64,000 nt of DNA. Source: a virus. The translations under genes and the position numbers were made by a program. Shown one piece after another: positions 5,857 to 36,673 of the stretch. The notes under the pieces were generated by a model. It had not been told where the DNA came from, did not search any database, and saw nothing but the letters and a program-made list of their open reading frames with translations. The stretch is from positions 9,383-73,382 of the IMG/VR virus record IMGVR_UViG_3300036801_000174; one strand, 5' to 3'. The first letter of the stretch is position 1, and each line of letters starts with the position of its first letter.

Positions 5857-6222
5857 CTAGTCGTCGCTCTCGGAACCGCCCTCAGGCGGCGTCACGCTGA
5901 CCGCAGCCGGGCTCTTGGCCCTGGGCGCGGGTGCTGGCACGGCCGGGGTCTTAGAGACCGCCTCAGCGCTGTCCCCGCCCTCGTCCTCCGGCTCCGGGTC
6001 GGCCAGCCGCTTCGGCAGCGGGCCGTCCGAGGGGAACCAGTCCGCGGTCGGCGGCGGGAACCACGCGGCGGCCTCGTCCGGGTCCTCCGGCACCATCACG
6101 CCGAACGGGCCGGAGAACTCCCGCTCCTCGCCCGGCTTCACGTAGCCGACAATCACGGCGCGGGCGTCCCGGGTCTCAGGAAAGGAGCACGGGGTGGTCC
6201 CGCAGAAGGTGAACTCGGGCAT
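5857..6222 (-). CDS. Hypothetical virion-module protein
   Basis: ATG with GGAGG RBS; MPEFTFCGTTP...; Pro/Ala-rich tail. Confidence 0.6.
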   Translation of the reverse strand: MPEFTFCGTTPCSFPETRDARAVIVGYVKPGEEREFSGPFGVMVPEDPDEAAAWFPPPTADWFPSDGPLPKRLADPEPEDEGGDSAEAVSKTPAVPAPAPRAKSPAAVSVTPPEGGSESDD

Positions 6223-14678: not shown

Positions 14679-15227
14679 ATGAGCGATGACCTGGTGACAT
14701 GGCTGCGGGAGCAGATCACGGCCGACCTGGAAGCGGCGAGGATCGTCGGCGCGGGAGGCTTTGAGCCGGAGCGATGGGATACCGACCCGCCGGGACAGGT
14801 GAACCCGGCACCCGCCCCCTACGGAGACCAGATCAACGCCGTGCTTGTGCCAGATCCCGAGGACCGGCGTGATCGCGAAAGCCTGCCCGGCTGGGTGGAG
14901 GTCGTCAGCTATAACCGGATGCTCGGCAAACCACCTGAGGCCGACTGCCGGGACGATGACCTGCCGGTCGCGCTTGTCGACTATGGGCGGCGCGAGGTGG
15001 ATCACATCTGCCGTCACGACCCGCGCAACGTGGTCGCCCGCTGCGAGGCGGAACTGGCCATCCTGGATGAGTGCGACCTGCTGCTGAAGGTCGGCATCGC
15101 CTTCCCGGATGAGGCAGGCGTCGAGTCAGCGGAGCGGATCATGCGCCTGATCGGCGCGGCCTACCGTCACCGTGACGGCTACCTGGAGGAGTGGGCACCC
15201 GCCGCTGCCCTCCAGGGCAGCGGCTAG
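14679..15227 (+). CDS. DUF6221-family protein (second copy, counter-oriented)
   Basis: LVTWLREQI...HICRHDPRNVVARCEAELAILD...YRHRDGYLEEW. Confidence 0.8.
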   Translation: MSDDLVTWLREQITADLEAARIVGAGGFEPERWDTDPPGQVNPAPAPYGDQINAVLVPDPEDRRDRESLPGWVEVVSYNRMLGKPPEADCRDDDLPVALVDYGRREVDHICRHDPRNVVARCEAELAILDECDLLLKVGIAFPDEAGVESAERIMRLIGAAYRHRDGYLEEWAPAAALQGSG

Positions 15228-18200
15228 CCCGGGATCAGGCTGCAGTTGCACCGGGGATGAGCCGGCGGCATGGTGTCGCCGCTTGAGAACGGCTGCCCGA
15301 GCGGGACGCGCCCCTCCGCCTCATTGTCCAGGCAGACCGGGCAGACGATCCCCGCCGCCGGGTCGGTGAGCCAGAGGCTGTACTCCACGCCGTTCTCCGG
15401 GTACGTGTCCATGGCAGCCTGCGCCGACGCCCCGGTGACCTGATCCATGGCCGCGCCTTCAGCCACGTCCGGGGCTGCCACGGCTCCGGCCAGCTGGTCT
15501 CCGAGGTCCCGCATGCTGGTGCCGCCGGTCACGCCACCCAGGACCCGGCTGAGCACCGCCGTGAACGCGCCCGTGATGGCTGTGACCGCGGCAGCCACAG
15601 CACCAGCCAGGAACGCGCTGAGCGCCGCGTCAAGGCCGAGAGAGGCAACCTGCCGCACGGCACCCTGGGTGTCCCCGGGCGGGGCGGCCTGCACGACCCT
15701 GTCATGGCCGTTCACCAGTGCCGTGGCGGAAACCGCGCCGATGAGATAGCCGCCGGTCACGATGCCCTCAGCGACCGCAGCCAGCGGCAGCGTGATGCCC
15801 GAGGCGGCCAGCCACTCCGCCAGCCATGCGGCTGCGGCACCGTTGCGGTCCCGCTTGCCCGGTGCGTCTCCTTGCTGTGCCGGGTTGGCTGCCAGGTAGG
15901 ACATGGCCATCCGGTCCAGCACGGCGGGAGTCAGTGCCCGGGAGACGGCAGCGGTGACCTGGGGTGCCCAGTAGGCGACTGCCGGGCCGTCATGTTCCCA
16001 GCCCGGCCAGACTTTTGGGGGGCTCGCAGCTTTGGTGACCTCGGCGGCGCCGAGAGGGAAGCGGCCGACATCATTGCCGCAGTGCACTGACAGGTGAGTG
16101 AACGTCACCGGGGTCTCAGGCACGGCGGCGGGGAGCGGGTCACCGGGCTCCGTGTAGGCCAGGGTGACATGCGGGTGCCAGTCAGCATGCTCGCTGGCGG
16201 ACAGGTCCGCCAGCGACTCCCGGAGCTGCTCAGCACCAGGGAGCACGACCCCGGCCCATGCGGGAGTCTTCCCGTCGCTGCTGTCCGATGGCGGGAACGT
16301 GCCGATGCCGCCCACGGTCCCGGTCAAGGGCCCGGGCATTGCTGCCGCTGCGGTGCCCGCGCGTTCGCACGCTTGCATCAGTGCTACCTCGTCCACGTCC
16401 GGGCCGAGGTAGACGATGGTGATGTGGTGATCCGTGACGCCGCCCGGGACCGGATCAATCAGCCCTTCCGGCAGGTCCAGCGAGATCATGCCCGAGCGCG
16501 GGCCCAGGTCATAGCCGCTGGTGTCCTTGCGGACTTTCACCCGGGCTGCGGCGTTCAGCTGTGCCGCCTCGGCAGCGTCCACGTGGCGGAACTCGAAGTC
16601 GCGCCACGTCCCGGCCTTGCGCCGTGCCTTCTCGAACCGGCGGAACGCGGCGAGTTCGGACTTCACCACTGCGGCCTGATCCTCCGGGCCGTCCTCGTCG
16701 TCGTCCTGCCCGATGAGGTCGTAGCTGGTGATGCCGGTGTCAGCGGTGATCCCCGTTGTGGGGGTGCCGCCTTCGCCTGCTTCCTTGGCGACCGTGCCCG
16801 GCTGCGGCGGCGGCGCGGGAGGCAGCGCCTTCGGCCCGTACTCCTGCTCAGCGAGGGGCTCGGCCACCAGCGGCGGGTTCGGCAGCACACCCTGAACACC
16901 CGTGAACGCCTCGTGCGGCAGCGGGGCATCCGGGTCCGGGGCGGCGGTCTGCGCGTCGACCGGCCCGGCAACCCCGTACAGCGCCGAGAGGGGGATGGGG
17001 CCGCCGCGTGTGGTGAAGAACACCCGCGGCACCGTCTGGCCCTCGGGCTCGGCCAGGCCGAACCGCATCTCCCGGATCTCAGACGCGCCGACGACGCCGT
17101 TCTGGATGTAGATCTGGTCGGACTGGGCGACGTTGAGCTGGTCGTCCTGTTCCTCGCCGCGGTCGAACTCGAACTCCAGCGGCAGGCCCAGGTCGTCGAT
17201 GATGAATGCGGACAGGATGCCCTCGATGTGCTCCATCAGGGGCAGGTCGCCGACGCGGTGCTGCACGTCGGCCTGCGACTCGCCGGAGGAGCGGTTGACA
17301 TCCTCGGTGAAGCCCAGGTCCGACGGGACCACGTGGAAACTTGCGCAGGTCTTCCGCATCAGGAAGAGGCTGAAGGTGTCGGTGAACTCTTTCTCGTTGC
17401 TCCACGTGAACTGGCTGCCGCCGGGCAGCCAGCGGATCTGGTGTTTGGCGGCCTGGTCGCCGTAGATCATGGAGTCCCAGTAGGCTTGGAAGGTCTCGAT
17501 CTGGTCGGGGTTCCACGACTCCGGGGCGCTGGCGAAGGCTTCCGGTATGTTTCCTTCCGTAAAGCGCTGCAAAAAGTAGATCTGGAAGCGTATGTCCGTA
17601 TTCGCATTGAGCATGATCGACTCAATAGGCGCGTGGCCGTAGGGCGAGTCGCTGTGCGGGCGGAAAGGCTCGTAGATCAGGTCATCCCTGGTCAGCCAGC
17701 CCCACGGCAGCCCGTTCGCGTACTGGACGTACGCCTCGGCGGGCGGCTCCGGCGAATCGCCCCAGTAATCCAGCAGCGGCGCGATCAGCGTCCCGTCAAC
17801 CGGCTTCAGCCCGATGCACTGCCCCGCGCGGTTGCGCATCCGGTACAGCGCCCCGGCGTCGTAGGCGAGAATGTCGTACGCGTACTTGGCGAACCAGGCC
17901 TTGAAACTCTGCTTGCGGTCAGGCTTCTTCAGCGCCTTCTGCGCAAGCGCAATCGCGCCGGTAACGTCCCCGGTGTAGCCCTGGGTAGCGATCAGCTTCC
18001 ACTTCAGGCTGCGGATCGAGTCAATCCTGTGCCAGATACATATGTCCGCAACGTCGTAGGCCCCTATAAGGCCCTTGAGCGCATCGAAACTGACCCGCTC
18101 ATGCGTCCTCGGGCGGGTCGCCACGTTGTACGACGTGGTGTAATCAAGGACGCGGGGAGTGCGGGAATACCCGTCATACGGCCCGACCGGCTCACCTGGG

Positions 18201-18349
18201 GAGAACGGGTGATCGGGGCCCATCTGCGAGACGCCGGCCGCCGCCTGGTGCATCGCTTCGGGACCGGGCCCGGCCAGTGTCTCCACGTCAGTGCCGAGGG
18301 CTTTGGCGGCGCGGGTCAGCGTCCCTGCGATGCGAGTGCGGACGCCCAT
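15224..18349 (-). CDS. Portal protein fused to 2H phosphoesterase and MuF-like domains
   Basis: N-terminal portal (SPYGHAPIE, FHVVPSDLGF, EIREMRFGL); middle HxT pair (HHITIVY, HVTLAY); C-terminal VCPVCLDN...PPAHPRCNC. Confidence 0.85.
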   Translation of the reverse strand: MGVRTRIAGTLTRAAKALGTDVETLAGPGPEAMHQAAAGVSQMGPDHPFSPGEPVGPYDGYSRTPRVLDYTTSYNVATRPRTHERVSFDALKGLIGAYDVADICIWHRIDSIRSLKWKLIATQGYTGDVTGAIALAQKALKKPDRKQSFKAWFAKYAYDILAYDAGALYRMRNRAGQCIGLKPVDGTLIAPLLDYWGDSPEPPAEAYVQYANGLPWGWLTRDDLIYEPFRPHSDSPYGHAPIESIMLNANTDIRFQIYFLQRFTEGNIPEAFASAPESWNPDQIETFQAYWDSMIYGDQAAKHQIRWLPGGSQFTWSNEKEFTDTFSLFLMRKTCASFHVVPSDLGFTEDVNRSSGESQADVQHRVGDLPLMEHIEGILSAFIIDDLGLPLEFEFDRGEEQDDQLNVAQSDQIYIQNGVVGASEIREMRFGLAEPEGQTVPRVFFTTRGGPIPLSALYGVAGPVDAQTAAPDPDAPLPHEAFTGVQGVLPNPPLVAEPLAEQEYGPKALPPAPPPQPGTVAKEAGEGGTPTTGITADTGITSYDLIGQDDDEDGPEDQAAVVKSELAAFRRFEKARRKAGTWRDFEFRHVDAAEAAQLNAAARVKVRKDTSGYDLGPRSGMISLDLPEGLIDPVPGGVTDHHITIVYLGPDVDEVALMQACERAGTAAAAMPGPLTGTVGGIGTFPPSDSSDGKTPAWAGVVLPGAEQLRESLADLSASEHADWHPHVTLAYTEPGDPLPAAVPETPVTFTHLSVHCGNDVGRFPLGAAEVTKAASPPKVWPGWEHDGPAVAYWAPQVTAAVSRALTPAVLDRMAMSYLAANPAQQGDAPGKRDRNGAAAAWLAEWLAASGITLPLAAVAEGIVTGGYLIGAVSATALVNGHDRVVQAAPPGDTQGAVRQVASLGLDAALSAFLAGAVAAAVTAITGAFTAVLSRVLGGVTGGTSMRDLGDQLAGAVAAPDVAEGAAMDQVTGASAQAAMDTYPENGVEYSLWLTDPAAGIVCPVCLDNEAEGRVPLGQPFSSGDTMPPAHPRCNCSLIPG

Positions 18350-25298: not shown

Positions 25299-26450
25299 TC
25301 ATCCTCCCTCGGCGACCGCGTGAAGCGGGCGCGGCGCCCTCTCGGCCTGCACCTCGGCCAGCAGTCGCCCGGCCGTCTTATCGCCGACAGGAAGCTCCTT
25401 CATCACCAGGTACTTGGAGACCTTGCCGCGGTCGGCGAACAGTTCCCGGATGCCTTCCCGGATGTCCTCGTCGGTTGCCTTCCGGCCACCCTTCCGGCGT
25501 GCCTTCTGGACGGCACCTGCGGGTGGCTTCTGCGGGGCAGTTGCGGATGCCTTCCGGGGGGCCGTCTGTGGTGCATCCCCAGCGGGTAGCTCAGGTGCCG
25601 CCTGAGTGACCGTCTCGGGTGCAGTCTGGAGGTCGTTCGAGATGGCCTCCGAGAGGGCCTCCGAGAGCCCCAGGCGGCGTGACAGCCAGCTGTCCAAGAC
25701 CGGCTCCCAGTGAGCCGCTCCGCCCCACGTAAGGCCGTCCTCGATGGCCTGGCGCACATCGGCCGGGAAGCGGCCCGTGCGCATGGCCGTGGCCACCGAC
25801 AGCGGCACCGGCAGGCCAGGCTTGCGGGCCAGCACCGCGGCCACGGTGTCGCGCAGGTAGACGCGGGCGTCCTCAATGGCGTTCATCAGCGGCCAGGTGG
25901 TGACGCCGAGCAGGTTCTTGCGGCGCCACATGAAAAACGTCGGGCCCGGCGATGCCATCCAGCGCCGGAGCGGGATCGCGTCGACTGGCTCGGGCGGCGG
26001 CTTGCGGAGCGCCTTCCAGATCAGCCGGAGCACCTCGATGCCGAGGACCCAGGCTGTGGGGCAGGCCGCAGCGAGGATGACCCACAGCAGCGAGTCCGCG
26101 AGCGTGGCTGCCCCGTTGCCGAAGATGGTCAGTGCGGCGAATCCCCAGGCCGCGATCCTGGCCAGCCGCGACGGCCAGCCCAGGGCAACCAGGAGGTGAT
26201 CGGCGATGACGTAGGTCGGGATGCCCAGGTCGATCATCAGGGGCAGCAGCCACGGCGAGTGCCAGCCATGGGCCGCAGCTGCGGCGGACAGGTTCCAATA
26301 CGAGAACCAGGCGCCGGCGGCCATGGAGGCGATGACGAACGCGACTGCCACGCCGAGCCAGAGCTTCTGGGTGTCGCTGAGACGGCTGCGTCGGGCGTGG
26401 GCGGGCAGTGCAGGTGTCGGTGCGTGCATGCCGTCCATGTTGGCGGTCAC
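25299..26450 (-). CDS. DUF2637 / SpdB-like membrane protein
   Basis: SYWNL..A...LPLMID motif, several TMs, DAIPLRRWMASPGPTF, C-terminal HTH-like end. Confidence 0.75.
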   Translation of the reverse strand: MTANMDGMHAPTPALPAHARRSRLSDTQKLWLGVAVAFVIASMAAGAWFSYWNLSAAAAAHGWHSPWLLPLMIDLGIPTYVIADHLLVALGWPSRLARIAAWGFAALTIFGNGAATLADSLLWVILAAACPTAWVLGIEVLRLIWKALRKPPPEPVDAIPLRRWMASPGPTFFMWRRKNLLGVTTWPLMNAIEDARVYLRDTVAAVLARKPGLPVPLSVATAMRTGRFPADVRQAIEDGLTWGGAAHWEPVLDSWLSRRLGLSEALSEAISNDLQTAPETVTQAAPELPAGDAPQTAPRKASATAPQKPPAGAVQKARRKGGRKATDEDIREGIRELFADRGKVSKYLVMKELPVGDKTAGRLLAEVQAERAPRPLHAVAEGG

Positions 26451-26487
26451 GGGTGATCCTTCCTCGGATTTCCGGCTCAATGCGTGG

Positions 26488-26742
26488 TCAGTGGTGCCTG
26501 CGGGGCAAATGCGACTCCCGGCCACCACCTGGCCCGGGGCCAATCGCACGCTGGCGCTCAGCCTTGAGCCGGCGGAACGCCTCGGCGTCGGGACCGCGGT
26601 TCTGCCATCCGAACGCGCCTTCCCAGAACAGGTCAGTCATTACGCGGTCAATCTGGTGCGGGTCGCCGTTCTCGGCGCCCTGGCCGGCCACACCAGCAGG
26701 GGGGCGTACCGGCTCAGAACCTGGCTTGTGAGTCATGATCAT
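26488..26742 (-). CDS. Hypothetical protein
   Basis: AAGGAG RBS. Confidence 0.5.
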   Translation of the reverse strand: MIMTHKPGSEPVRPPAGVAGQGAENGDPHQIDRVMTDLFWEGAFGWQNRGPDAEAFRRLKAERQRAIGPGPGGGRESHLPRRHH

Positions 26743-26748
26743 TTCTCC

Positions 26749-26913
26749 TTAATTTCCGGGGCGCCGGGCCACGGGTACGACACGGTGAGCACGCTCGCCC
26801 CGGACGATCATGAGGACGACCGCAGCGATCATGAGCACGCAGATGGCTGCGATGAGCCAGGTGGGCAGGGCGCCGATAGCGGCGACGATGGGCCAGGGAT
26901 GGGTGTTTGTCAT
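26749..26913 (-). CDS. Small membrane protein (54 aa)
   Basis: MTNTHPWPIVAAIGALPTWLIAAICVLMIAAVVLMIVRG...; GGGAG RBS; below ORF-track cutoff. Confidence 0.6.
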   Translation of the reverse strand: MTNTHPWPIVAAIGALPTWLIAAICVLMIAAVVLMIVRGERAHRVVPVARRPGN

Positions 26914-26925
26914 GGGGTGCTCCCT

Positions 26926-27069
26926 TCAGAAGCGCTTAGTGATCCTTATCCAGGTATGGAACGGTCCCCTGAGGCTGTAGAACACCCCGAAACCGCGCCT
27001 GCGGTGATGCCGGAAGAGCAGGACGTGGACCACGAAGTAGCCCAGGACGATTGCGGCGAGGATGTGCAT
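26926..27069 (-). CDS. Small membrane protein
   Basis: AGGAG RBS; MHILAAIVLGYFVVHVLLF. Confidence 0.55.
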   Translation of the reverse strand: MHILAAIVLGYFVVHVLLFRHHRRRGFGVFYSLRGPFHTWIRITKRF

Positions 27070-27146
27070 TGCTTGCTCCTTGAACTGGGGGCCCCGGCGC
27101 GGGCCCCGGCGGCTGGTGATTGCCCGCGCCGGGGCGTCTGTGGTGG

Positions 27147-28082
27147 TCACCGCGATCTGCCTCCCCGGGGAGGGCGGTTACGGTAGGTGACTTCGGCTGG
27201 GAGCGGCACATGCGGCCGGTCTGGGCGGTTACGCTCTGCGACATCCTGTGTCCCTGATGTCCTAGATTGTCCTAGCTTTCGGTCCGGGGAGACCCGCCCG
27301 AAGGGCGCTGTGCCGGCCCTCCCGGCTTGCTGGCGCTCCGGCTGTGACCCTGCGTCACTTCGGCGCAGGCGCCCGCGCACCTTGGCAGTCACCCGCTGTA
27401 GCCGTCCCCGGTGCTGCGCCCACGCCTCGTCCTTGGACCCGGTGTAGCCGCCATGCTTGACGGCCAGCCCGAACACCCAGTCGGTGCTCTTAAAGCCGAA
27501 GTGATCCCTGACCTTGCTCAGGTTCTCGCCGTCGCGGAGCATCTGCCCGGCGTCGCGGCCGACCTGCTCAACGCACGGGACGCACCGCTTGCCGGGGTTG
27601 CGCGTCTTGCCGCGGCAGCGCTCGTGGTTGATGCAGTCGTGCTGCGGCGGGGGCACCGGGAGCGGCCTGCCGCCGTTGTTGCGCACCTTGTCCTGGTGCT
27701 GCTTCGGGCCGTCCCCGGTGAACAGGTTGCCGCCCCGGGCGCGGGACTCCTCCTCCGTCGTACCGGGACGCCAGGAATTGTGGGTTCCCACATCGTCCCA
27801 GTGCCGCGACTGCAGGCCTTCTGGGATCGGGCCGCCTTTGAATGCGAAGTTCTCCAGCACCACGCGGTGCGCCTGGCGGGTCACCCGCTTGCCGTCCTTG
27901 TCCAGGTACTTCACCAGGACGTAACCGTCATCAGTGGTGGTGGTGGCGATCGGCTGGGCCTTGAGGTTGCGGCCCGAGGGGGACTTGCGGGCGTCGGCGT
28001 AGAAGTTGCCGTCCCAGCTGACCCGGAACCCGGGCCACGCGTCCCAGATCGGTTTCCACTGCTCGGGTTCGTGGTCGGTCAT
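27147..28082 (-). CDS. NUMOD4/HNH-like endonuclease with extended C-terminus
   Basis: EQWKPI..GFRVS.DG; HRVVLENF..H.DD...N; ends GGRSR. Confidence 0.65.
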   Translation of the reverse strand: MTDHEPEQWKPIWDAWPGFRVSWDGNFYADARKSPSGRNLKAQPIATTTTDDGYVLVKYLDKDGKRVTRQAHRVVLENFAFKGGPIPEGLQSRHWDDVGTHNSWRPGTTEEESRARGGNLFTGDGPKQHQDKVRNNGGRPLPVPPPQHDCINHERCRGKTRNPGKRCVPCVEQVGRDAGQMLRDGENLSKVRDHFGFKSTDWVFGLAVKHGGYTGSKDEAWAQHRGRLQRVTAKVRGRLRRSDAGSQPERQQAGRAGTAPFGRVSPDRKLGQSRTSGTQDVAERNRPDRPHVPLPAEVTYRNRPPRGGRSR

Positions 28083-28909
28083 CGTGACCTCCCGGTGTGC
28101 GAGTGGTGCCTGCCGCCGCTCTTCGGCCTGTCGTCGTGTCCCTGCAAGGCCATTACGAACAGGTCACGGATTGTGGCGGCGCGCTCCGTGCGGGCATCAA
28201 GGGCCGAGCGGAGGCGCTCAAGCGACCGGGGGTCGTTGTAATCGGCGAGCTTCCAGAACTGCCACCAGCGCGGGTTCCGCGCCAGCGCCCGGCGCACTTT
28301 GGCAGCTTCGGCCTTCGCCTGCTCGTGGGTAGCGTTCCAGTAGTAGGCGCACATCTGGCCCGTATCAGCCCACGGGGAGTGCTCCTCCGCGGTTGCCCCG
28401 AGGAACACCAGGCGCCCGATGAGGCCTGCGGCCTTCTCCTCATCGAACGGGCCGCTGGCGACGGCCAGGCCCTTCAGTTCGGCGTCCAGGGCGACCGGAT
28501 CGCCGACTTCCGCCCGGGGCATGAGGCTGAAGGGGAGACCCTTCTGCACGGCGCGCCTGGAGGCACCACGCCACAGGCCGAGGAAGAACATGAGGCTGTC
28601 GTCAAGGCGGAACAGTTCAGCGCGGCCGTCTCCGGTGATCTGGCTGTCCGCGAAGCGCTTGTGGAAGGCGTCCTCCACGTCCTCGCCGCCTGGCACCAGC
28701 ATGAGCACGTCCTCAAATGAGAGGTAGAAGCCCCGCAGCCGCGCCTTCAGGCTGGTGGACGTGCCGATCTTGACGTTGTCACCCATGCGCACGAAGTAGA
28801 CGACCGGCAGGTGATTCTCGCCTGCGAGGATGCGGGCCAGTTCAACACCACCCGCATAGCTGCGCTTGTCCATTCCCTGCTCCCCCTCAGGTCGGTTACG
28901 GCTTGTCAT
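28079..28909 (-). CDS. GIY-YIG (T5orf172-like) nuclease-domain protein
   Basis: VVYFVRMGDNVKIGTS..L..R...E..FH.RF..ELF; ends TGRSR. Confidence 0.7.
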   Translation of the reverse strand: MTSRNRPEGEQGMDKRSYAGGVELARILAGENHLPVVYFVRMGDNVKIGTSTSLKARLRGFYLSFEDVLMLVPGGEDVEDAFHKRFADSQITGDGRAELFRLDDSLMFFLGLWRGASRRAVQKGLPFSLMPRAEVGDPVALDAELKGLAVASGPFDEEKAAGLIGRLVFLGATAEEHSPWADTGQMCAYYWNATHEQAKAEAAKVRRALARNPRWWQFWKLADYNDPRSLERLRSALDARTERAATIRDLFVMALQGHDDRPKSGGRHHSHTGRSR

Positions 28910-30780
28910 CGCGCTGCGCTCCCTATCAGGCGGCGCTCCTCTTCCCAGTCGGCGATCTCAACCGGGTCGTAGGCGGGTGCGGATCCCTTCTTGCGGACCG
29001 GTTCCGGGACGGGCTTCCCGGCCGCCCGGTCGCGCTGCATCTGCTTCTTGACCGCGTCGGGAGTCGGCCCGGTGATCTCGCGGTCGACCAGCTCGGCGAT
29101 CGTCAGGGGCTCCGGCGGAGGGGGCAAAGCGGGCATATGTCCACGACTTGCCGGGACATCCGGGCCAGATTCCCCGGTGTCCGCGACTTGACCGCTGTCC
29201 GGGACAAGGCGCAGGGCGAGCTTGCGGGCCGTGCCGGAGGCTTCCTGGGCAGCGCGCTCAGGAGTGCCTAGCGGTGCGAGGGTGCCTTCGATGCCGAGAC
29301 ACGGCATGTCGCCGGCTGCGCTGGCGATGACGCCTGCCGTGGCCCAGGCGCGGGCCTCGGCGCCGGTCATGAAGGCAGCCTGGATCTCGGTGCTGGTCTT
29401 CGCGGTGACCACATGGAGGCGCCCCTTGACATCCGACCCGGCCGGCAGCGGGTGACGGTCGCCGACGAGCATCTTCCAGGTGGACGCGGCCGGGTTGGAG
29501 ATGAGCTTGAGGCCCAGGTTCTCGCGGCTGTCCGCCGAGCCGCCGCCGGTTGCCTTCGCTGACAGCCGCTGGCCGATGTAGACCAGGTTGACCGCGACGG
29601 CGCGGCCGGTGAACGCAACCCGGTCCAGCGCGATCACGGCCGGTGACATGCCCTTGCCGCCGATGGACCGCCAGTAGGACTTGAGTTCCGCCGCGGTCGC
29701 GTTCAGTTCTTCCAGGAGGGCGACGATCCTCGGGCCGGGGTTGGCGTGGACCTTGCCCTCAACGTCGGCGTGCAAGACGGCCAGGGCGTTGCGGCGGTCC
29801 ACTTCGGCGGCCAGCCAGAGTGCCAGCTGGTGCACATCCTCGATCGTGCGGGCGTAGGCGACGTTGGGCAGGCCCGCCGCCCACTGGTGGCTCACGAGTT
29901 TGCGGTCCAGGACAACGGTGAGGGCGCCGTGATAGGCAAGCTGGGCGGCAGCGAGGCGGGCCGTGACACTTTTGCCATCCCCTGTGGGCATCGACAGGCC
30001 CAGGTGCGGGGAGTCGCTGTCGACGCTGACGATGAACGGGTCACTGGCGCCCTTGCGGGTCAGGCCCAGCACCATCTCGTGCTCGGCCGCTGCCTCCGCA
30101 GCGGCCAGGATCTCGGCCCAGGCGACGAAGCCGGGCATCGGCTCCGCCTTGGTGAACACGGCAACCGGACGGCGCCGCAGCGGCGACTGCGACCAGGCAA
30201 TGCCGGGCGGCCCGGCGATCGCGATCCGCGGCACGGCGGCGAGGACAGCCTGGCTGACCTTCTCCTTGGCCTGGACGTCGAAGTCAGGCCCGAACTCAAG
30301 CCACACCTTGCTGTGGTCGCGTGCGACCTGGGCGTCGCGGGCAGGGATCCCGGCAGTGGCGAGGGACTGTTCCAGCGGCTGAACGTTGTCTTTGACGTGG
30401 GTCCAGTTCCGCACGGTCCAGGTGAAGTGCCATATCCCGGCGAGGATCGCCACGGCGGCGATGACAGCAAAGACGCGGAGGGTGGCAGTGCGGTGCGCTG
30501 CGAGACCCCATGCGGTCGCGAGGATGGCGATGGTGGCCAGATGGCGGGCCAGGGCACGCCGGGATGCGTCGGGGTGCTTCTTGCCGGTGCCCCGGCGGGC
30601 CGCGTCCCTGCCTGCGGGAGTGCGGGGCTGACCGTCAAGCGGGATACCGGCAATCCACCGTCCCGCCGCTGTCAGCTTGCCGTGCTTGCGGCTGTGCTCC
30701 GCAATCCGTGACACGACCGCAAGAACCACCACAACGCAGACGATGATGACCGCGAGCGTGACAATGCTGCTAGTGCTCAT
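28906..30780 (-). CDS. FtsK/SpoIIIE-like conjugative DNA translocase (TraB; pRL2-11-like)
   Basis: N-terminal TMs; SPHLGLSMPTGDGKS Walker A; VLDRK; LLEE; GRAVAVNLVYIGQR. Confidence 0.75.
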   Translation of the reverse strand: MSTSSIVTLAVIIVCVVVVLAVVSRIAEHSRKHGKLTAAGRWIAGIPLDGQPRTPAGRDAARRGTGKKHPDASRRALARHLATIAILATAWGLAAHRTATLRVFAVIAAVAILAGIWHFTWTVRNWTHVKDNVQPLEQSLATAGIPARDAQVARDHSKVWLEFGPDFDVQAKEKVSQAVLAAVPRIAIAGPPGIAWSQSPLRRRPVAVFTKAEPMPGFVAWAEILAAAEAAAEHEMVLGLTRKGASDPFIVSVDSDSPHLGLSMPTGDGKSVTARLAAAQLAYHGALTVVLDRKLVSHQWAAGLPNVAYARTIEDVHQLALWLAAEVDRRNALAVLHADVEGKVHANPGPRIVALLEELNATAAELKSYWRSIGGKGMSPAVIALDRVAFTGRAVAVNLVYIGQRLSAKATGGGSADSRENLGLKLISNPAASTWKMLVGDRHPLPAGSDVKGRLHVVTAKTSTEIQAAFMTGAEARAWATAGVIASAAGDMPCLGIEGTLAPLGTPERAAQEASGTARKLALRLVPDSGQVADTGESGPDVPASRGHMPALPPPPEPLTIAELVDREITGPTPDAVKKQMQRDRAAGKPVPEPVRKKGSAPAYDPVEIADWEEERRLIGSAAR

Positions 30781-30949
30781 CCGTCCCTCCCGCGATGGCC
30801 TTGACGTGATGGAAGACCCATACGGCGCCCTGCTTCACGAGCCAGCCAGCCATGCACGCCGCAGCCAGGGCGGTGAGCATGACCGCGCGGGCCTTGTGGC
30901 GGCGCCACAGGCCGTCTGCCCGGCTCAGGTACTGGCTGGCTCGCTGCAT
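30770..30949 (-). CDS. Small membrane protein
   Basis: AAGGAG RBS; one TM. Confidence 0.55.
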   Translation of the reverse strand: MQRASQYLSRADGLWRRHKARAVMLTALAAACMAGWLVKQGAVWVFHHVKAIAGGTDEH

Positions 30950-30971
30950 GGGTAACTGGCTCCTTGCCGGT

Positions 30972-31625
30972 TCAGCGGCTACGGGCACGGGTGGGCTGGC
31001 GGATGGTCTCGTGAGGCAGCGGGTGCGCGGTCCTGGCAGGTGCCGGTGCGCTGCGCTCCTCCGGGGCGTGGCCGTTGGTGGCGGCCTTGCCGGGCTCGCT
31101 GCGGGTGACGTCCTTCTGGGCGCCATCGGGGCGCGGGTCGCGGCCACGGGGCATCGGGTGGTCCTCCTGGCCAGGCCGGGTCCGTGCGCTGAGACGCTGG
31201 CGCAGCGACGGACGCCCGGTGCGCTCCTTACGGGGCTTCTGGCCCTTCTCCCGGCGCTCCGCCCGCTGGTCCCGGTCCCGCTGCCTGAGGTCGGCTTTGG
31301 CCAGCGGGCGGTCAGTGAGCGGGGTGTAGCCGCGCCAGGGAGTGGCCGGGCCGGGTGCCTGGCGCTTCGGCGCCTTCGCTGGCTCAGCGCGGACGCCGAG
31401 GGTCTTGTGCATCCGCTTCGGCGTGACCTTGCGCACCGCAGCCTTAGCCACCGCCGCGCTCCGGACCCTGGCACCGCGCTGGCGGTGCAGGATCTTCTGG
31501 ATCTCGCGGTGGGCCGCTACCCGCACTGAGTGGAACGGAGAGCGCAGCGCCTTGATCGCCTTCTGCAGCTTCAGCTTGTCGCGGACGCTGAGGGGGCGGT
31601 AACTGGATCCTTTTCCTGTAGCCAC
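30972..31625 (-). CDS. Highly basic hypothetical protein
   Basis: AAGGAG RBS; Arg/Lys-rich; ends TRARSR. Confidence 0.6.
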   Translation of the reverse strand: MATGKGSSYRPLSVRDKLKLQKAIKALRSPFHSVRVAAHREIQKILHRQRGARVRSAAVAKAAVRKVTPKRMHKTLGVRAEPAKAPKRQAPGPATPWRGYTPLTDRPLAKADLRQRDRDQRAERREKGQKPRKERTGRPSLRQRLSARTRPGQEDHPMPRGRDPRPDGAQKDVTRSEPGKAATNGHAPEERSAPAPARTAHPLPHETIRQPTRARSR

Positions 31626-33400
31626 TGCGGGCTCCTTGCTTCAGACGGGATCTTGCTGCCATCGGAGACGGCAGGCGGGACGGGTACGGCGGGCATCGGG
31701 ATGGCCTGGCGGTGCGGGGCCTCGATCGCGGGCTGCGGCTGCGGTGCGCAGGCCGGGAAATTCTCGGGGCCGAGAGGGGCGGCGCAGTAACCGCGGCGCT
31801 CCCACACGGGCGTGACGCGGGCGAACACCGGGCGGGTAGACCGGTGCAGCACCAGGGCCTCGAACTTGGCCAGCATGCGGATGCGCTCCGGCGGCACGGC
31901 GCGCTCCTGGCGTGGCTGCCTGGTTTTCCCGCCGCCGGGGTTCTTGACGTGATCCCAGGTGTCGCGTGGCCCGCACACCGCAGAGATGGCCTCAAGATCC
32001 TGGTGGTTCGTCTCCCCGCCGAAAATGACCTTCACTGTGGCGTTGGTGAAAATCGTCTGGCCGTCCTGGTCGCCCCAGCGTGACCGCAACTGCGAGAGTG
32101 CCTGGATAGACGCCATAACGGTGACGCCATGGCCGCCGGACTCACTCATCCACTTGTGCAGCGGCACCGGGCAGGTGATCGGCGCCTCGTCCAGGGCCAG
32201 GGTCAGCGGGCGGGGCAGGCGCGTGCGGGGGCTGGAGGACGCGACCCTCTTCGCGGTCTCAAACAGGTGCGCGGTGAACGTGGCGAAGTAGGGGGCCAGG
32301 GAACCGTGCGGCTTGTCGGCGCCGATCAGGTAGATCGTGCCGGTGCCATCGCGCACGAAGCGCTCAGCATCGAACTCCGTCCCCGGCGCGGGGCATGCAG
32401 CGGCGGCCATGGCCGGGTCGGACAGCCACGCCAGGGCGGTCATCACGCCCGTGGACGTGTAGCCGCCGTAGTTCTCGTCAGTGTTCATGCGCTCGGCCAT
32501 CGCGGCGATCTCGTCGCCCCACCCGGGCGCCGCGTTAGCGTGCGTGGCCAGCACCCTGAGGGGGGTGGGGTCGGCGAGAACGGCAGCGGCCCAGCGGCGC
32601 ACTTCCCAGATCGTCGCGCCGGGGATCAGGGCGGCCGCATGAAGCAGATACTGCAGGAAAGTCTTGGACTGGTGATCCCACCATGCGTCCTTGCCGGAGG
32701 AGTCCTTCGGCGCGGCGTTGATCAGGTATCCGGCGCGCTGCATCGCCACCGCCGGGTTCTCGCAGCCGCGTACAGGCGACCACGACAGGGTTGAGGGGAT
32801 GCCGCCATCGCCGTCAGGGTTCAGCACCCAGATGGGCCCGTGGGCGCTGCGCGGGACGGCGGTATTGGCGTACAGGTCGGTGCGCGTCGAGGTGGCCAGT
32901 ACCGCCCCGGGGGCATCAGAAATCCAGCAGCCCAGCAGCCCGGACTTCCCGGTCCGGGGCGGCGCTATGAGGATGTAGGTGTCTTCGGCGCTGCCAGCGA
33001 GCGTTCGGCCTTTCGCGTCGCCGATGACGACGTGTGATGTGTGGATGCCCGCGGTGCGGCGGCTGGCGGCGCGGGGTGACAAGTTGCCGCTGATCTCGCT
33101 GCGCGACGCTGTGCCCTGGTACTTGCGGCGCCTGCGCTCGGCCACCTTCCCGCCGGCGCGGCGCAAGCGCACAGCGTCGGTCACACCACGGACCCGCAGT
33201 ACCGTGACCCCGCCAAGCGCTACCCAGCCGTAGGGGATGCCCGGGGCCATGTGGGCCGCCTCGGCGATGATCCCGGCGGTCAGGATGACGGCCGGTGGTG
33301 CGGTGCCCCTGATGGCCGAGCGCTTGGCCCTGCTGGCGCGGTCACGGACGGACCGCGGCAGGACGCTGCGCTTGGCCTTCGGGGCGGCGTTGGTCTTCAC
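31571..33400 (-). CDS. VirD4/TraG-like type IV coupling protein
   Basis: APPRTGKS Walker A, VLATSTRTD, WSPVRGC, LALDEA Walker B, IQALSQLRSRWG, NATVKVIFGG. Confidence 0.85.
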   Translation of the reverse strand: MKTNAAPKAKRSVLPRSVRDRASRAKRSAIRGTAPPAVILTAGIIAEAAHMAPGIPYGWVALGGVTVLRVRGVTDAVRLRRAGGKVAERRRRKYQGTASRSEISGNLSPRAASRRTAGIHTSHVVIGDAKGRTLAGSAEDTYILIAPPRTGKSGLLGCWISDAPGAVLATSTRTDLYANTAVPRSAHGPIWVLNPDGDGGIPSTLSWSPVRGCENPAVAMQRAGYLINAAPKDSSGKDAWWDHQSKTFLQYLLHAAALIPGATIWEVRRWAAAVLADPTPLRVLATHANAAPGWGDEIAAMAERMNTDENYGGYTSTGVMTALAWLSDPAMAAAACPAPGTEFDAERFVRDGTGTIYLIGADKPHGSLAPYFATFTAHLFETAKRVASSSPRTRLPRPLTLALDEAPITCPVPLHKWMSESGGHGVTVMASIQALSQLRSRWGDQDGQTIFTNATVKVIFGGETNHQDLEAISAVCGPRDTWDHVKNPGGGKTRQPRQERAVPPERIRMLAKFEALVLHRSTRPVFARVTPVWERRGYCAAPLGPENFPACAPQPQPAIEAPHRQAIPMPAVPVPPAVSDGSKIPSEARSPQWLQEKDPVTAPSASATS

Positions 33401-33657
33401 CGTGACCGCCCCTTGCTGCGGGGCGCCCGCCGATCGCGCACCCGGTCAGGCTGGCGGTCTTCATCTGTCTGCTCACGCCAGGCGAGGTAGGAGTCACGAT
33501 GGAGTTCCAGGTCGCTGAGATCACGCACGCCGTGTACTTCCTTCAGGTAACTGGCACGCTGCTCCTCGCTGTAGCCGGCCTTGCGCAGGCGCATCATGGC
33601 CCGGTCTGGTGATCCGTGACGCCATTCGTCCCTGGCTGCACGCTCGGTGTCGTTCAC
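33397..33657 (-). CDS. Hypothetical protein
   Basis: Coupled to T4CP start; ends SKGRSR. Confidence 0.6.
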   Translation of the reverse strand: MNDTERAARDEWRHGSPDRAMMRLRKAGYSEEQRASYLKEVHGVRDLSDLELHRDSYLAWREQTDEDRQPDRVRDRRAPRSKGRSR

Positions 33658-33665
33658 TGGACGCC

Positions 33666-34256
33666 TCACCGGGTCCTCCCCCGCTGGACTGGCTCCCGGT
33701 CTTCCCACGGGTTGACGCGGGACTGCCTCAGGGCCTCTGCGGCACGGTCAGCCCTGCCGGGGCCCAGCACCTTGTCTGCGCGCTCGCGGGCGTCCACGGG
33801 CTGGCGCTGTGCGAGCGGGCAGTGCTCGTTGTGCTGCCTGGTGAGCCGCTCATTACGCTCCTGCGCCGACTCGCGCGGCTGTGCGGGAAGGGCCCGGTAG
33901 GCGTCGGGACCGTGCTCCCATGCGCCGGTGCCGGGAGTGAACGCACCCGACTTCCGCATCCGGGCGAACTGCTCGTCGCGGCGCCGGTAGATCTCGGCGT
34001 CATCGCGGCGGGGCCTGCCTGTGGCCGGGTTGATGCGGTCCCGGTAACCCGGCAGCGAGGAGCGGAGGCCGCGGGTGGCGCGCTCGGCCCAGAAGCCCTT
34101 GCCAGTCTCGGCGAACCGGCGGCGGCGCCAGTTGCCCACCTGGCCGGAGACGGTTCGCAGCGGACGCGTGGCCCGGTAGAGACCGTTCTGCAGGGGCACT
34201 GTGGCCTTGCGCGCGTACCAGGGAGCGTCGTGAGCGTAGTCAGACAGGCGGCTCAT
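33666..34256 (-). CDS. Arg-rich hypothetical protein
   Basis: ATGA coupling; ends QRGRTR. Confidence 0.6.
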   Translation of the reverse strand: MSRLSDYAHDAPWYARKATVPLQNGLYRATRPLRTVSGQVGNWRRRRFAETGKGFWAERATRGLRSSLPGYRDRINPATGRPRRDDAEIYRRRDEQFARMRKSGAFTPGTGAWEHGPDAYRALPAQPRESAQERNERLTRQHNEHCPLAQRQPVDARERADKVLGPGRADRAAEALRQSRVNPWEDREPVQRGRTR

Positions 34257-34474
34257 CGTGACCTCCCTCGCCGCTGCGCTCGCTCAATGGCGGCGTGCGC
34301 TTCGTTGGTCACGGAGTTACGGCGCACGGCGGAGCGGTCTCGGCCCACGTTGCGGGAGAAGTTCTCCATGAACTCGTGGAAGGCGACCCTGCTGCCGCGC
34401 GCCGGGTCATGCGGGATGTTCCAGATCTCGGCGAAGCGGTCGTACAGCCGCTCGACTTCGCCAGGCTTCCTCAT
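34253..34474 (-). CDS. Hypothetical protein
   Basis: ATGA coupling; ends RRGRSR. Confidence 0.6.
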   Translation of the reverse strand: MRKPGEVERLYDRFAEIWNIPHDPARGSRVAFHEFMENFSRNVGRDRSAVRRNSVTNEAHAAIERAQRRGRSR

Positions 34475-34923
34475 GGCAATTCCTTCCGTGGCACCGGCAC
34501 CGCGTCCGTGATGACGTAGGGCACCTGGATGGGTGGCTTGGTCTCGATGACCTGGACGGCGGGGGTGTTCATCGCGGCGAGGATGTGCCGCACGCTCGCC
34601 AGTTCGGCCTGCGTCAGCCCGGCCACTGCGGCACGCGCAGCAACGGGCGCGGCCAGCCGCGCGGGGCGGACGCCGCGGCGGAACACCAGCACCGTGCAGA
34701 AGCGGTGCAGGATCCAGACCTCAGCGACGACGACACCGCAGGCCAGCGCCAGGCCGATACCCAGCACGATGGCGTATGCCACCACCCACTGGGCAACGAA
34801 GTAGAGGACGAAGGCGGCAGCCGCCACGGGTGCGACCACCATCACGAACTCGGCCAGCACCTCCAGCGGGCCGCCGGTCTGGACGGTGACCCTGGCCGGG
34901 CGGGTGTACTCGTGGGTAGGCAT
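34471..34923 (-). CDS. Two-TM membrane protein
   Basis: Long hydrophobic segments. Confidence 0.65.
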   Translation of the reverse strand: MPTHEYTRPARVTVQTGGPLEVLAEFVMVVAPVAAAAFVLYFVAQWVVAYAIVLGIGLALACGVVVAEVWILHRFCTVLVFRRGVRPARLAAPVAARAAVAGLTQAELASVRHILAAMNTPAVQVIETKPPIQVPYVITDAVPVPRKELP

Positions 34924-35295
34924 CTAGGCCACCTCTTCCGTTCCGCAGCACTTGCCGCGCCGGGCGGCCTCGCACTCGGTGCACTCCAGGCGCCCGTCGC
35001 TGCGGACCCTGGTGTTCGCCGCGGAGCGCCAGTGCCCGTTGTCGCACAGCGGGGAGGGCGGCAGGGAGCCGTGACCGGAGCCCTCGAAGTCCACGCCCGC
35101 CCAGATCCCCCATCGCTGGTCTGTCGCCAGGGCGTACTCCAGGCACGGCGGCCGTGACGGGCACGCCTGGCAGACCTGCTTGGCTGCGTCGATGCCTGCC
35201 GGGTCCTCAGGGAACTGCCGGTCAGGGTCGGCGCCACACGGGAGGCCGGGGGCGTCCCGGACGGCGCGCAGGAAGACGGCAGCCGGGCTGGTCAT
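34924..35295 (-). CDS. WhiB-family regulator with C-terminal Zn finger
   Basis: C..DPD..FP..AKQVCQACP...CLEYAL..GIWAG; CDNGH...CTEC. Confidence 0.85.
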   Translation of the reverse strand: MTSPAAVFLRAVRDAPGLPCGADPDRQFPEDPAGIDAAKQVCQACPSRPPCLEYALATDQRWGIWAGVDFEGSGHGSLPPSPLCDNGHWRSAANTRVRSDGRLECTECEAARRGKCCGTEEVA

Positions 35296-35382
35296 GACGA
35301 CTCCTCGCCGCGGACGTAGCGTCCGCCCTGGACCTGCCACCCGAAGGAGGCCAGCAGCGGATTGGGATGCGGTGTGCCGTCC

Positions 35383-35560
35383 TTGGCATCCTCCCGGCCC
35401 TGAAGGGGCCAGGATTCCCGGGCGCTCATGCCGCGCTCCGGGCGGTTCCCGCCGCCGCGAACTGCGCGGGCTTCTGCGGGCATAGAGCCGGGTGCCCCCC
35501 GGCGTGCGCAGGGATTTCGCCGCCAGTGGCGATGAGTCCCCGGGCAAGTACATTGCGCGC
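35383..35560 (-). ncRNA. Putative omegaRNA scaffold / IS right end
   Basis: GGAATCCTGGCCCCTTCAGGGCCGGGAGGATGCCAA resembles IS605-type right-end hairpins; 5' boundary approximate. Confidence 0.55.
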
Positions 35561-36673
35561 GGCATTTACATCGGCGTGGTCTTCGTGGCCGCACTCCTGG
35601 CACCGGAAGACCGCTTGGCTCTCGCGGTTCAGGGCGTTGGTGTGGCCGCAGATGTGGCACTGCTGCGAGGTGAATCTAGGGTTGACGAACAGGACCGTGA
35701 CATCGGACGCCGCAGCCTTTTGCTCTAGCCGAGTGGCGAGGGTGCCCCAGCAGGAAGTCAGAATGCCCCGGCTCAGGCTGGCCTTGGCCCGGGCTCCGTT
35801 GCGAAGGAATGCGCTTGGCTGGCCAGGATCAGGCTTCGGCGCGGGCCTTCGGGTCATGCCCGCGATGTTCAGCTTCTCCAGCACGATCAGGTCGTTCTCA
35901 CGGACCATGCGCGTGCTGACCTTCTCCGCCCAGTCCTTGCGCCGGTCGACAGTGCCCGCAGTGATGCGTGCCATGGCCAGCACGGTGCGCTTCCGTTTCG
36001 CTGAGCCCTTCTGCTGCCGGGCCCGCTTGCGAGCGAGGGTGCAATAGCGTGCGGCGTCCCGGTCACCGATCCTCGGGGCCCGGTAGTGCTGGCCGCCCGA
36101 GGTCACCAGTGCAGTACGAACGCTGCGGTCAATACCGATGCGGCTGCCCGAGGGCTCACGGACAACGGCAGGCTGCAACGCAGCGAATGACACGTGCCAC
36201 CGCCCGGCCCGGTCCAGGGTGACCCGGTAAGACTTGGCCTCGGGGACCGAACGGGACCAGCGGAAACGTACCCAGCCAAGCTTGGGAATCTGAACTGCGC
36301 CCCAGTGCCGCGACTGGCGCTTGACGCGGTAGCCGCGCCCTAGGTCATGAACCCGGAATCCCTCATTGCGCCCGGCCTTGCGCCAGGTCGGGTGCCCATG
36401 CGTGCGACCGAAGAAGTTCTGCATCGCCTGAGCGAAATCCCTGAGCGCTTGGCCCTGGACTTCAGAACTGCCAGCGCGCAGCCAGTCGAATTCGCTACGG
36501 GCCTCGGTAAGTTGCCGCGACTGCTCTGCGTAGCCGGGTGCGTTCTTGCGCCCGGGCCGCCACCAGGACTGCTGCTCGACCGCCAGGTTCCAGACGAACC
36601 GGGCGTGGGCGCAGTGCTCGCGCAGGATCAACTCCTGGGCAGGCGTCGGGTAGAGCCGGTATCGGGTGCTCAT
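35426..36673 (-). CDS. tnpB: TnpB RNA-guided endonuclease (IS200/IS605 family)
   Basis: YRLYPT N-terminus, RuvC D (GIDR), E (VLEKL), D (HADVNAARN), CHIC/CQEC finger. Confidence 0.92.
   Translation of the reverse strand: MSTRYRLYPTPAQELILREHCAHARFVWNLAVEQQSWWRPGRKNAPGYAEQSRQLTEARSEFDWLRAGSSEVQGQALRDFAQAMQNFFGRTHGHPTWRKAGRNEGFRVHDLGRGYRVKRQSRHWGAVQIPKLGWVRFRWSRSVPEAKSYRVTLDRAGRWHVSFAALQPAVVREPSGSRIGIDRSVRTALVTSGGQHYRAPRIGDRDAARYCTLARKRARQQKGSAKRKRTVLAMARITAGTVDRRKDWAEKVSTRMVRENDLIVLEKLNIAGMTRRPAPKPDPGQPSAFLRNGARAKASLSRGILTSCWGTLATRLEQKAAASDVTVLFVNPRFTSQQCHICGHTNALNRESQAVFRCQECGHEDHADVNAARNVLARGLIATGGEIPAHAGGHPALCPQKPAQFAAAGTARSAA

Follow-up and report, generated by a model that had tools for sequence, protein, structure and literature searches.

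A carboxyl-terminal Arg-(Ser/Thr)-Arg motif and a translational-coupling cassette around a VirD4-type ATPase gene in a putative actinophage

Introduction

Why do unrelated proteins encoded around one coupling ATPase gene end in the same residues? This question is raised by a stretch of 64,000 nucleotides (nt) from IMG/VR virus record IMGVR_UViG_3300036801_000174 (positions 9,383 to 73,382 of the record; hereafter the window, numbered from its first base). On its minus strand lies an operon with a gene for a VirD4/TraG-type type IV coupling protein (T4CP), and six products of this operon end in Arg-Ser-Arg or Arg-Thr-Arg (R[ST]R) at the free carboxyl end. The original prediction took these endings for a possible export signal, by which the T4CP may deliver a cohort of tagged proteins, two of them with nuclease domains, into neighbouring cells. 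Its premise, that VirD4-type systems recognise Arg-rich C-terminal tails, agrees with a review in which such C-termini are established for substrates of the Agrobacterium VirB/D4 system (PMC10025392). Literature searches found nothing on phage-borne T4CPs and nothing specific on Shine-Dalgarno (SD) sequences, overlapping genes and C-terminal bias. Coupling through ATGA or GTGA start-stop overlaps, with the SD sequence inside the upstream gene, is a general bacterial feature. Here we describe an R[ST]R tail that is specific to the T4CP module, conserved, and retained where its codons have changed, and we weigh what it may do. Constraints at the protein level and at the nucleotide level are both real.

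Results

Translation of all minus-strand open reading frames (ORFs) of the operon gave six tailed C-termini with codons exactly as first described. In order of transcription, the carriers are s73 (34253-34474; 73 aa, 21% Arg, pI 11.4), ending in RRGRSR (GGG AGG TCA CGA TGA); p196 (33666-34256; 196 aa), ending in QRGRTR (GGG AGG ACC CGG TGA); s90 (33397-33669, with the ORF extending to 33708; ~90 aa from its likely true start, the GTG at 33669), ending in SKGRSR (GGG CGG TCA CGG TGA); R217 (30972-31625; 217 aa, 18% Arg, pI 11.9), ending in TRARSR (CGT GCC CGT AGC CGC TGA); a T5orf172/MUG113-like protein (28079-28909; 276 aa), ending in HTGRSR (GGG AGG TCA CGA TGA); and HNH311, a NUMOD4/HNH-like protein (27147-28082; 311 aa), ending in PPRGGRSR (GGA GGC AGA TCG CGG TGA). 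All six are very basic (pI 9.0-11.9, 11-22% Arg) and most lack a recognisable fold; no Pfam or PHROG family matched s73, and p196 combines a conserved core (..LRSSLPxYRxRINPATGRPRRDD..) with a C-terminal half that varies. From the composition of each protein, 0.001-0.005 R[ST]R motifs are expected per position, whereas 6/6 termini carry one, which excludes chance; internally, the motif was found at 1 of 1145 positions. The statement that no such ending occurs outside the operon held for the whole 73.4-kb record, where none of 80 other genes called by a crude GC3 rule had it.

Within the window, the tail sorts by protein type, being present on 6/6 soluble basic proteins and on 0/5 membrane or ATPase proteins. 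The first gene of the module encodes TM150 (34471-34923, minus strand, as are all genes of the operon), a 150-aa membrane protein with three hydrophobic segments that ends in RKELP despite its coupling to the next gene (CCATGA). The T4CP itself (31571-33400; 609 aa) ends in SATS. TM59 (30770-30949), a single-pass membrane protein of 59 aa with an AAGGAG site upstream, also has no tail, and the FtsK/SpoIIIE-like P-loop ATPase (28906-30780; 624 aa, membrane-anchored) ends in SAAR (CGATGA). TM150, TM59, and the FtsK-like gene are each coupled to the gene that follows, yet tail-less.

At four to five of the six junctions, the tail is encoded by a cassette in which the SD sequence GGAGG is followed by a 5-nt spacer and by a start codon that overlaps the stop. 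Its consensus is GG(A/C)GG-(T/A)CN-CG-(A/G)TGA, and the same 14 bases provide the initiation site of the next gene and the last four residues of the previous protein. Clear 4-nt overlaps behind an SD-like run were found at 28079, 33397, 33666, and 34253. Two of these four are the identical 15-mer GGGAGGTCACGATGA, which ends the T5orf172-like gene and recurs at 34253-34267, where the SD sequence, the 5-nt spacer, and an ATG overlapping TGA read G-R-S-R-stop in the upstream frame. The junction at 33666-33680 is GGGAGGACCCGGTGA, containing the GTG at 33669, and that at 33397-33411 is GGGCGGTCACGGTGA, where the stop of s90 and the GTG start codon of the T4CP overlap. A related locus (L003) has the identical 19 nt around this junction, although the upstream proteins of the two loci have no detectable similarity to each other.

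It had been noted that two of the tailed genes do not overlap the next start. For R217 this is certain: the stop at 30972 is followed by AAGGAG and, 20 nt on, by an ATG, and the tail is not SD-encoded. For HNH311 it is only possible, since a GTG overlaps the stop at 27147 but an ATG 81 nt downstream (27069-27067) lies behind a better AAGGAG site. The small membrane protein encoded there (26926-27150) would have 74 aa from the GTG and more likely has 47 aa from the ATG.

We compared module genes with the remaining genes of five records, namely the record of the window and four relatives, whole or nearly so (G000, G001, G002, G003, and G005). Genes were called by the GC3 rule with pieces analysed separately, and the module was taken as the T4CP strand from -3 kb to +6.5 kb. 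R[ST]R ended 16/59 module genes and 1/440 genes elsewhere. When only genes with an ATGA or GTGA end were considered, the counts were 14/36 in the module and 0/147 elsewhere (Fisher p = 1e-11, indicative only because the records are related, with a caller that misses some small genes including s90). Enrichment near the T4CP therefore persists when overlap is controlled for, and coupled high-GC junctions in general do not give rise to the tail. The claim that ribosome-binding sites and ATGA coupling cannot explain every case was borne out by the 147 coupled genes without a tail and by the recoded tails without overlap described below.

The sequence of the cassette is likewise a property of the module. 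Elsewhere in these genomes, GGAGG is followed by diverse spacers, and TCACG is module-confined. The 11-mer GGTCNCGRTGA exceeded its reversed control in 5/5 records (G001-G005: 8, 7, 12, 3, and 7 copies versus 0, 0, 2, 1, and 0), and its copies away from the module lie within genes in another frame and look incidental. On two annotated actinobacterial plasmids with T4CPs of ~35% identity, tails were found on 0/27 and 1/38 genes. The cassette 15-mer does occur singly in other viral contigs; among the matches listed, 11 of 80 stretches were junction-like and none had a homologue of the operon.

Homologues conserve the tail, a point on which the original prediction had staked itself. Of 57 p196 homologues, 48 end in R[ST]R, 53 in RxR, and 56 in a final Arg, while their lengths range from 110 to 211 aa, their C-terminal halves are unalignable, and large parts of these halves are missing in many. 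Among 58 HNH311 homologues, R[ST]R ends 30 and RxR ends 44; R309 and R311 are invariant in the 42 full-length members, with S, T, N, H, or R between them, and in three homologues the motif is internal and followed by a short extension. The nucleotide context of the HNH311 tail is known from two loci, as an alignment scan of viral contigs matched only the L003 contig again. In L003, the orthologue (62% identity) encodes RRSR as CGC CGC AGC CGA TAG followed by a gap, compared with AGA TCG CGG TGA in the window.

The tail is also retained where the overlap is absent. At the R217 position, RSR is encoded as CGT AGC CGC in the window, CGC TCT CGC in L011, and CGT TCC CGC in L026, with a separate SD sequence after each stop; the L026 tail differs from the cassette by four bases, all synonymous. 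RSR is kept before a TAA stop in L034, and L010 keeps RRSR as CGG CGG TCC CGG with no SD sequence. Two loci (L029 and L030) end in PARTR and another (L004) in GRTR. In L022, a p196-like protein, overlapped, and an R217-like protein, not overlapped, both end in R[ST]AR with different codons.

A nucleotide-level constraint is certainly present at the junctions as well, because Ser at overlapped junctions is always encoded by TCN (20/20; 11 TCA, 5 TCC, and 4 TCG) and never by AGC, which occurs only in non-overlapped tails. TCA, AGG, and CGA are rare codons in high-GC genomes. The residue at position -4, which had been included in the tag as Gly or Ala, is G, R, A, E, or V in relatives, all readable from NNG codons, and looks like a by-product of the SD sequence. 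A U after GGAGG would presumably lengthen pairing with the anti-SD sequence by one base. Pairing extended beyond this one U was judged improbable from the rRNA sequence, and a palindrome or hairpin (GGTCA-CGA-TGACC) was rejected since it is absent at most junctions. We know of no role for the fixed CG preceding the start codon, and an Rfam scan of 26000-36000 returned no family at E 0.1.

This codon choice is one of several observations that weigh against a tail selected as a protein signal for the ATPases of the module. Within one genome the cassettes are alike (in L003, ..GGTCACGRTGA in all five cases), which suggests homogenisation at the nucleotide level. Two loci whose T4CPs are 32-35% identical to that of the window (L013 and L014) have another recurrent cassette, GGG(T/C)GGGCCCGRTGA, which reads G-W-A-R or G-R-A-R at consecutive junctions (L013 5329-6142; L014 5525-6132 and 10124-10776). 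This Trp/Arg swap at position -3 fits poorly with a basic tag and points to a nucleotide-level constraint too; with a cassette of its own in this clade, the recurrence of junction cassettes is seen to be a more general habit of these modules. The loci with the closest T4CPs (L021-L024; 61-62% identity) have no R[ST]R and only R[ST]AR variants. The tail follows operon position, because a 69-aa protein within the L003 series ends in RRSR and its window homologue outside the series (55% identity over 51 aa, E 2e-15) ends in CEVSA. None of 150 representatives of the T5orf172-like family ends in R[ST]R; the closest (79% identity) ends in RSTR and the L024 homologue in KEHKS. Proteins at the R217 position of L003, L020, L005, and L007 end differently. 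As for a transfer apparatus, the only match to a type IV secretion channel ATPase was AAA_10 at 16.6 bits, below the cut-off and inside the FtsK-like gene, and neither of the two relaxase families searched, TrwC and Relaxase (PF03432), matched; the record is ~72% complete.

The assignment of the T4CP to the VirD4/TraG type is solid on sequence grounds. Its Pfam matches were TraG-D_C (70.3 bits, cut-off 22; 1.9e-19), TrwB_AAD_bind (38.1 bits, cut-off 20.5; 1.1e-9), and T4SS-DNA_transf (34.4 bits, cut-off 20.1; 1.5e-8), and a profile of 39 homologues matched TrwB (1e9r) with an E value of 9.6e-12. The Walker A motif (..APPRTGKSGLL..) contains K152, invariant in the 39 homologues. At the N-terminus, a hydrophobic stretch is visible at residues ~37-68, and a 19-residue hydropathy scan (threshold 1.6) scored 0 segments. 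The assignments of the FtsK-like, HNH-like, and T5orf172-like proteins are weaker. The FtsK-like ATPase matched phrog_1358 (FtsK/SpoIIIE-like, E 9.4e-4) and has the P-loop GDGKS, and no Pfam family matched it at E 0.01; searches of PDB sequences with the T4CP alone and with the FtsK-like ATPase alone gave no match. Its C-terminal ~60 residues (28906-29100; ..LTIAELVDREITGPTPDAVKKQMQRD..) resemble a helix-turn-helix by eye and, if this is genuine, would form a domain for DNA recognition of the kind found in DNA translocases. The two nuclease-domain assignments of the original prediction draw on sub-threshold Pfam matches together with PHROG matches. HNH311 matched the PHROG HNH endonuclease (E 8.4e-9) and NUMOD4 at 16.5 bits (cut-off 23.4), some of its homologues having NUMOD4 or HNH_3 in precomputed Pfam annotation, and the N-terminal domain of the protein encoded at 28079-28909 matched MUG113 at 19.9 bits (cut-off 22.3) and T5orf172 at 19.5 (cut-off 20). 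Co-folding of T4CP residues 75-560 (39-row alignment) with p196 (40-row alignment) scored 0.00, which is evidence neither way. ESM Atlas leads for p196 (scores of at most 0.81, including clusters named 'MbeD/MobA-like') were left aside, as shuffled proteins reach that range one third of the time.

T4CP homologues are common in metagenomes (139 proteins) and were located in 18 IMG/VR loci, at least two of them in records with a portal gene, and in 15 metagenome loci. None of 120 homologues ends in R[ST]R. At least one module ORF with an R[ST]R end was present in 18/33 related loci, which were not de-duplicated. Consecutive series of tails directly upstream of the T4CP comprise five in L003, five in L001, four in L011, and three in the window, and the small genes between the junctions are mostly non-homologous among elements while the junctions are alike. 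Within the L003 series, two further perfect matches to GGTCACGGTGA are on the opposite strand at ~5619-5629 and 6023-6033 (locus minus strand) and are not at ORF ends. The T4CP homologue was absent from 50,697 isolated phage genomes and was present in 499 actinobacterial plasmid records at identities of at most 37%. DUF2637 is directly upstream of the T4CP on a Streptomyces plasmid and 5 kb downstream of it in the window (25299-26549, minus strand), where it follows the small membrane protein gene in the order of transcription. blastn searches with the 7.3-kb region against plasmids and against phages gave no match; a scan of genome contigs gave no match with a single protein and, with an alignment, one irrelevant match of 24% identity (L035).

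In seven loci (the window, L003, L004, L011, L020, L022, and L026), the Arg-rich gene that follows the T4CP gene starts within its 3' end in another frame, the overlap being tens of nucleotides in all seven and 55 nt for R217. The N-terminal ~45 residues of R217 are 61% identical between the window and L003, and the remainder is unalignable.

The record as a whole is 73.4 kb long, with a GC content of 68-70% and a CheckV completeness estimate of 72%. A minus-strand gene at 15224-18349 encodes a portal protein fused to a 2'-5' RNA ligase/LigT-like domain (1041 aa; Phage_portal 2.2e-17). In its portal part, the protein shares 46% identity with the Arthrobacter phage Sonali portal, and in its ligase part alone 68% identity with an ORF of record G002; G005 encodes a portal-like ORF of 1552 aa. 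Other genes of the window encode an HNH_3 endonuclease, a DnaB helicase, a PD-(D/E)XK nuclease, HTH regulators, a NUDIX protein, a fragment of a cytosine methylase, WhiB, and TnpB. We read the source as an uncultured tailed actinophage because of the portal fusion and these other genes. The TnpB/IS605 OrfB-type gene (35426-36673, minus strand; Cas12f1-like TNB 9.5e-22, OrfB_IS605 8.1e-13, and HTH_OrfB_IS605 5e-11) has the WhiB gene on one side and the upstream small genes on the other, and at its 3' end it shares ~140 nt with the long form of the WhiB ORF (34924-35565). Its insertion may have split an older, longer operon.

Discussion

The explanation that we prefer, at a probability of roughly 0.4, is that R[ST]R is a selected C-terminal motif, co-encoded with the coupling cassette, that docks its carriers onto an ATPase of the module. 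The module would be conjugation-like, comprising membrane proteins, the VirD4-type T4CP, the FtsK-like ATPase, and DUF2637, and a motif selected at the protein level would have become fused with a preferred translational-coupling cassette. Genes entering the array would thereby acquire the tail, and genes losing the overlap would keep it if it were useful to them. Through the tail, soluble basic proteins would dock on one shared receptor that the module itself encodes, the T4CP or alternatively the FtsK-like ATPase; they would thereby be recruited and perhaps transferred, together with DNA or beside it. That the tail is read at the protein level is probable from the sequence comparisons. Docking onto a common receptor is suggested by a free-carboxyl-end motif on unrelated soluble proteins that is absent from membrane and motor proteins and has clade-specific variants. 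This receptor may be one of the two ATPases, for which the odds are somewhat short of even. The T4CP would be the natural candidate because Arg-rich C-termini are signals of VirB/D4 substrates, with the FtsK-like ATPase as an alternative by analogy with type VII secretion.

Of the export-signal interpretation, what stands is that the tails are real, specific to the T4CP operon, beyond generic coupling, and conserved; the lack of a recognisable channel ATPase and of a relaxase of the two families searched, and the relatives without tails, count against it. Export of the tailed proteins to another cell or hyphal compartment is doubtful. We consider similarly improbable a phage-clade, relaxase-less translocon, composed of the T4CP, the FtsK-like ATPase, and small membrane proteins, that loads the cohort ending in R-[ST]-R-COOH so as to deliver it to adjacent cells or hyphal compartments. 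This cohort would then include the HNH-like and T5orf172-like proteins with several DNA-binding-like proteins, and the tag would be hard-wired into the coupling cassette and acquired by any inserted gene.

The tail could instead be the mere reading of an operon-specific RNA cassette (GGNGG-NCNCG-RTGA, 14 nt) with incidental amino acids, serving tight termination-reinitiation, equimolar output, or recognition by a phage-encoded translational regulator. The cassette carries four to five of the six window tails and every tail of the series in L003 (5), L001 (5), and L011 (4). The invariable TCN codons, the uniformity within genomes, the separate cassette of the L013/L014 clade, the NNG-compatible residue at -4, and the dependence on operon position rather than protein family all fit this explanation, as does a stretch of L026, GGAGGTCCCG, that recurs downstream of the stop and outside the upstream frame. 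However, at least four tails that are neither overlapped nor SD-encoded keep R-S-R with other codons, L010 has RRSR without any SD sequence, and HNH311 homologues keep R-x-R while the middle codon changes class. Moreover, the three coupled junctions of the window operon that lack the cassette are exactly those of membrane and ATPase proteins, a fixed CG before the start has no role known to us, and the region gave no Rfam match. An RNA cassette as the whole explanation is therefore somewhat unlikely.

Selection at the protein level might also be unrelated to the ATPases, the tail being a nucleic-acid contact, a contact in nucleoprotein assembly, or a stability determinant. This is consistent with carriers that are very basic and mostly without recognisable folds, two of them with nuclease-like or DNA-binding-like domains, and with the missing tails in some modules with closely related T4CPs. 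A strict free-carboxyl position on unrelated proteins of one module is nevertheless more typical of docking onto a common receptor than of diffuse DNA binding, and internal R[ST]R is not enriched, so that we regard such roles as rather unlikely. At the DNA level, the junctions may be direct repeats read by the FtsK-like or T4CP translocase, or linkers for shuffling small gene cassettes between phages. Plasmid translocases recognise repeat clusters, and here three to five same-strand copies lie within ~1.1 kb upstream of the T4CP in four elements, with mostly non-homologous genes between similar junctions and an excess of the 11-mer over its reversed control. Every functional copy, though, is placed exactly at a stop/start junction and in one frame, neither of which a DNA site needs; off-module copies seem incidental, and the recoded tails are left unexplained, which makes a DNA motif very unlikely. 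Chance in Arg-rich, high-GC proteins, to which the Arg content of the carriers and the isolated junctions with the 15-mer in other phages might point, is refuted by the counts at the termini and among coupled non-module genes (0/147), and by the absence of tails from the 120 T4CP homologues and the 150 T5orf172-like representatives.

Docking onto a module ATPase has its nearest parallel in the Agrobacterium VirB/D4 system, where unrelated substrates (VirF, VirE2, VirE3, VirD5, and MobA) have Arg-containing, positively charged extreme C-termini (PMC10025392). The six window tails agree with this pattern and have further Arg upstream of R[ST]R, and a VirD4-family coupling ATPase is encoded alongside them. 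They differ in that the motif consists of exactly three residues, R-[ST]-R, at the free end instead of a loose charge pattern, and is co-encoded with a coupling cassette; the setting is an actinobacterial phage rather than a Gram-negative Ti plasmid, neither a VirB-type channel nor a relaxase of the two families searched was found, and translocation is only putative. Compared with generic coupling, the likeness lies in 4-nt overlaps at four to five of six junctions with GGAGG-like runs 5-9 nt before the start. Ordinary junctions have free spacers and last codons, whereas the spacer and CG here are fixed and confined to the module, where the amino acids persist when the overlap is lost.

In type VII secretion of Actinobacteria, the FtsK/SpoIIIE-type EccC recognises EsxB via a C-terminal signal, and an FtsK-like ATPase sits in the present module. 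The signal chemistry differs, there are no WXG100-like proteins or other ESX components, and this is an analogy only. Actinomycete conjugation and spread modules (FtsK-like TraB, Spd, and DUF2637) likewise resemble the module, which contains an FtsK-like ATPase, DUF2637, and small membrane proteins. Actinobacterial plasmid T4CPs are at most ~37% identical to that of the window, in neighbourhoods that were nearly tail-free where examined, whereas the module here lies in a portal-bearing genome.

Whatever the function of the tail, the locus offers a clear natural example of dual coding, one run of 14 bases being under constraint as a ribosome-binding and start signal and also as the end of a peptide. 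Since 'uncoupled' variants that exist in nature pull the two constraints apart, the question can be put to a direct test. The locus also carries a warning for annotation: where junctions are coupled, a C-terminal motif should be compared with a junction-matched control before it is taken for a signal. Should the tail prove to be a docking or export tag, no shorter or more sharply defined signal associated with a T4CP would be known, and it would be the first in a Gram-positive phage context; this would suggest that some phages use conjugation-type ATPases to move proteins or protein-DNA complexes.

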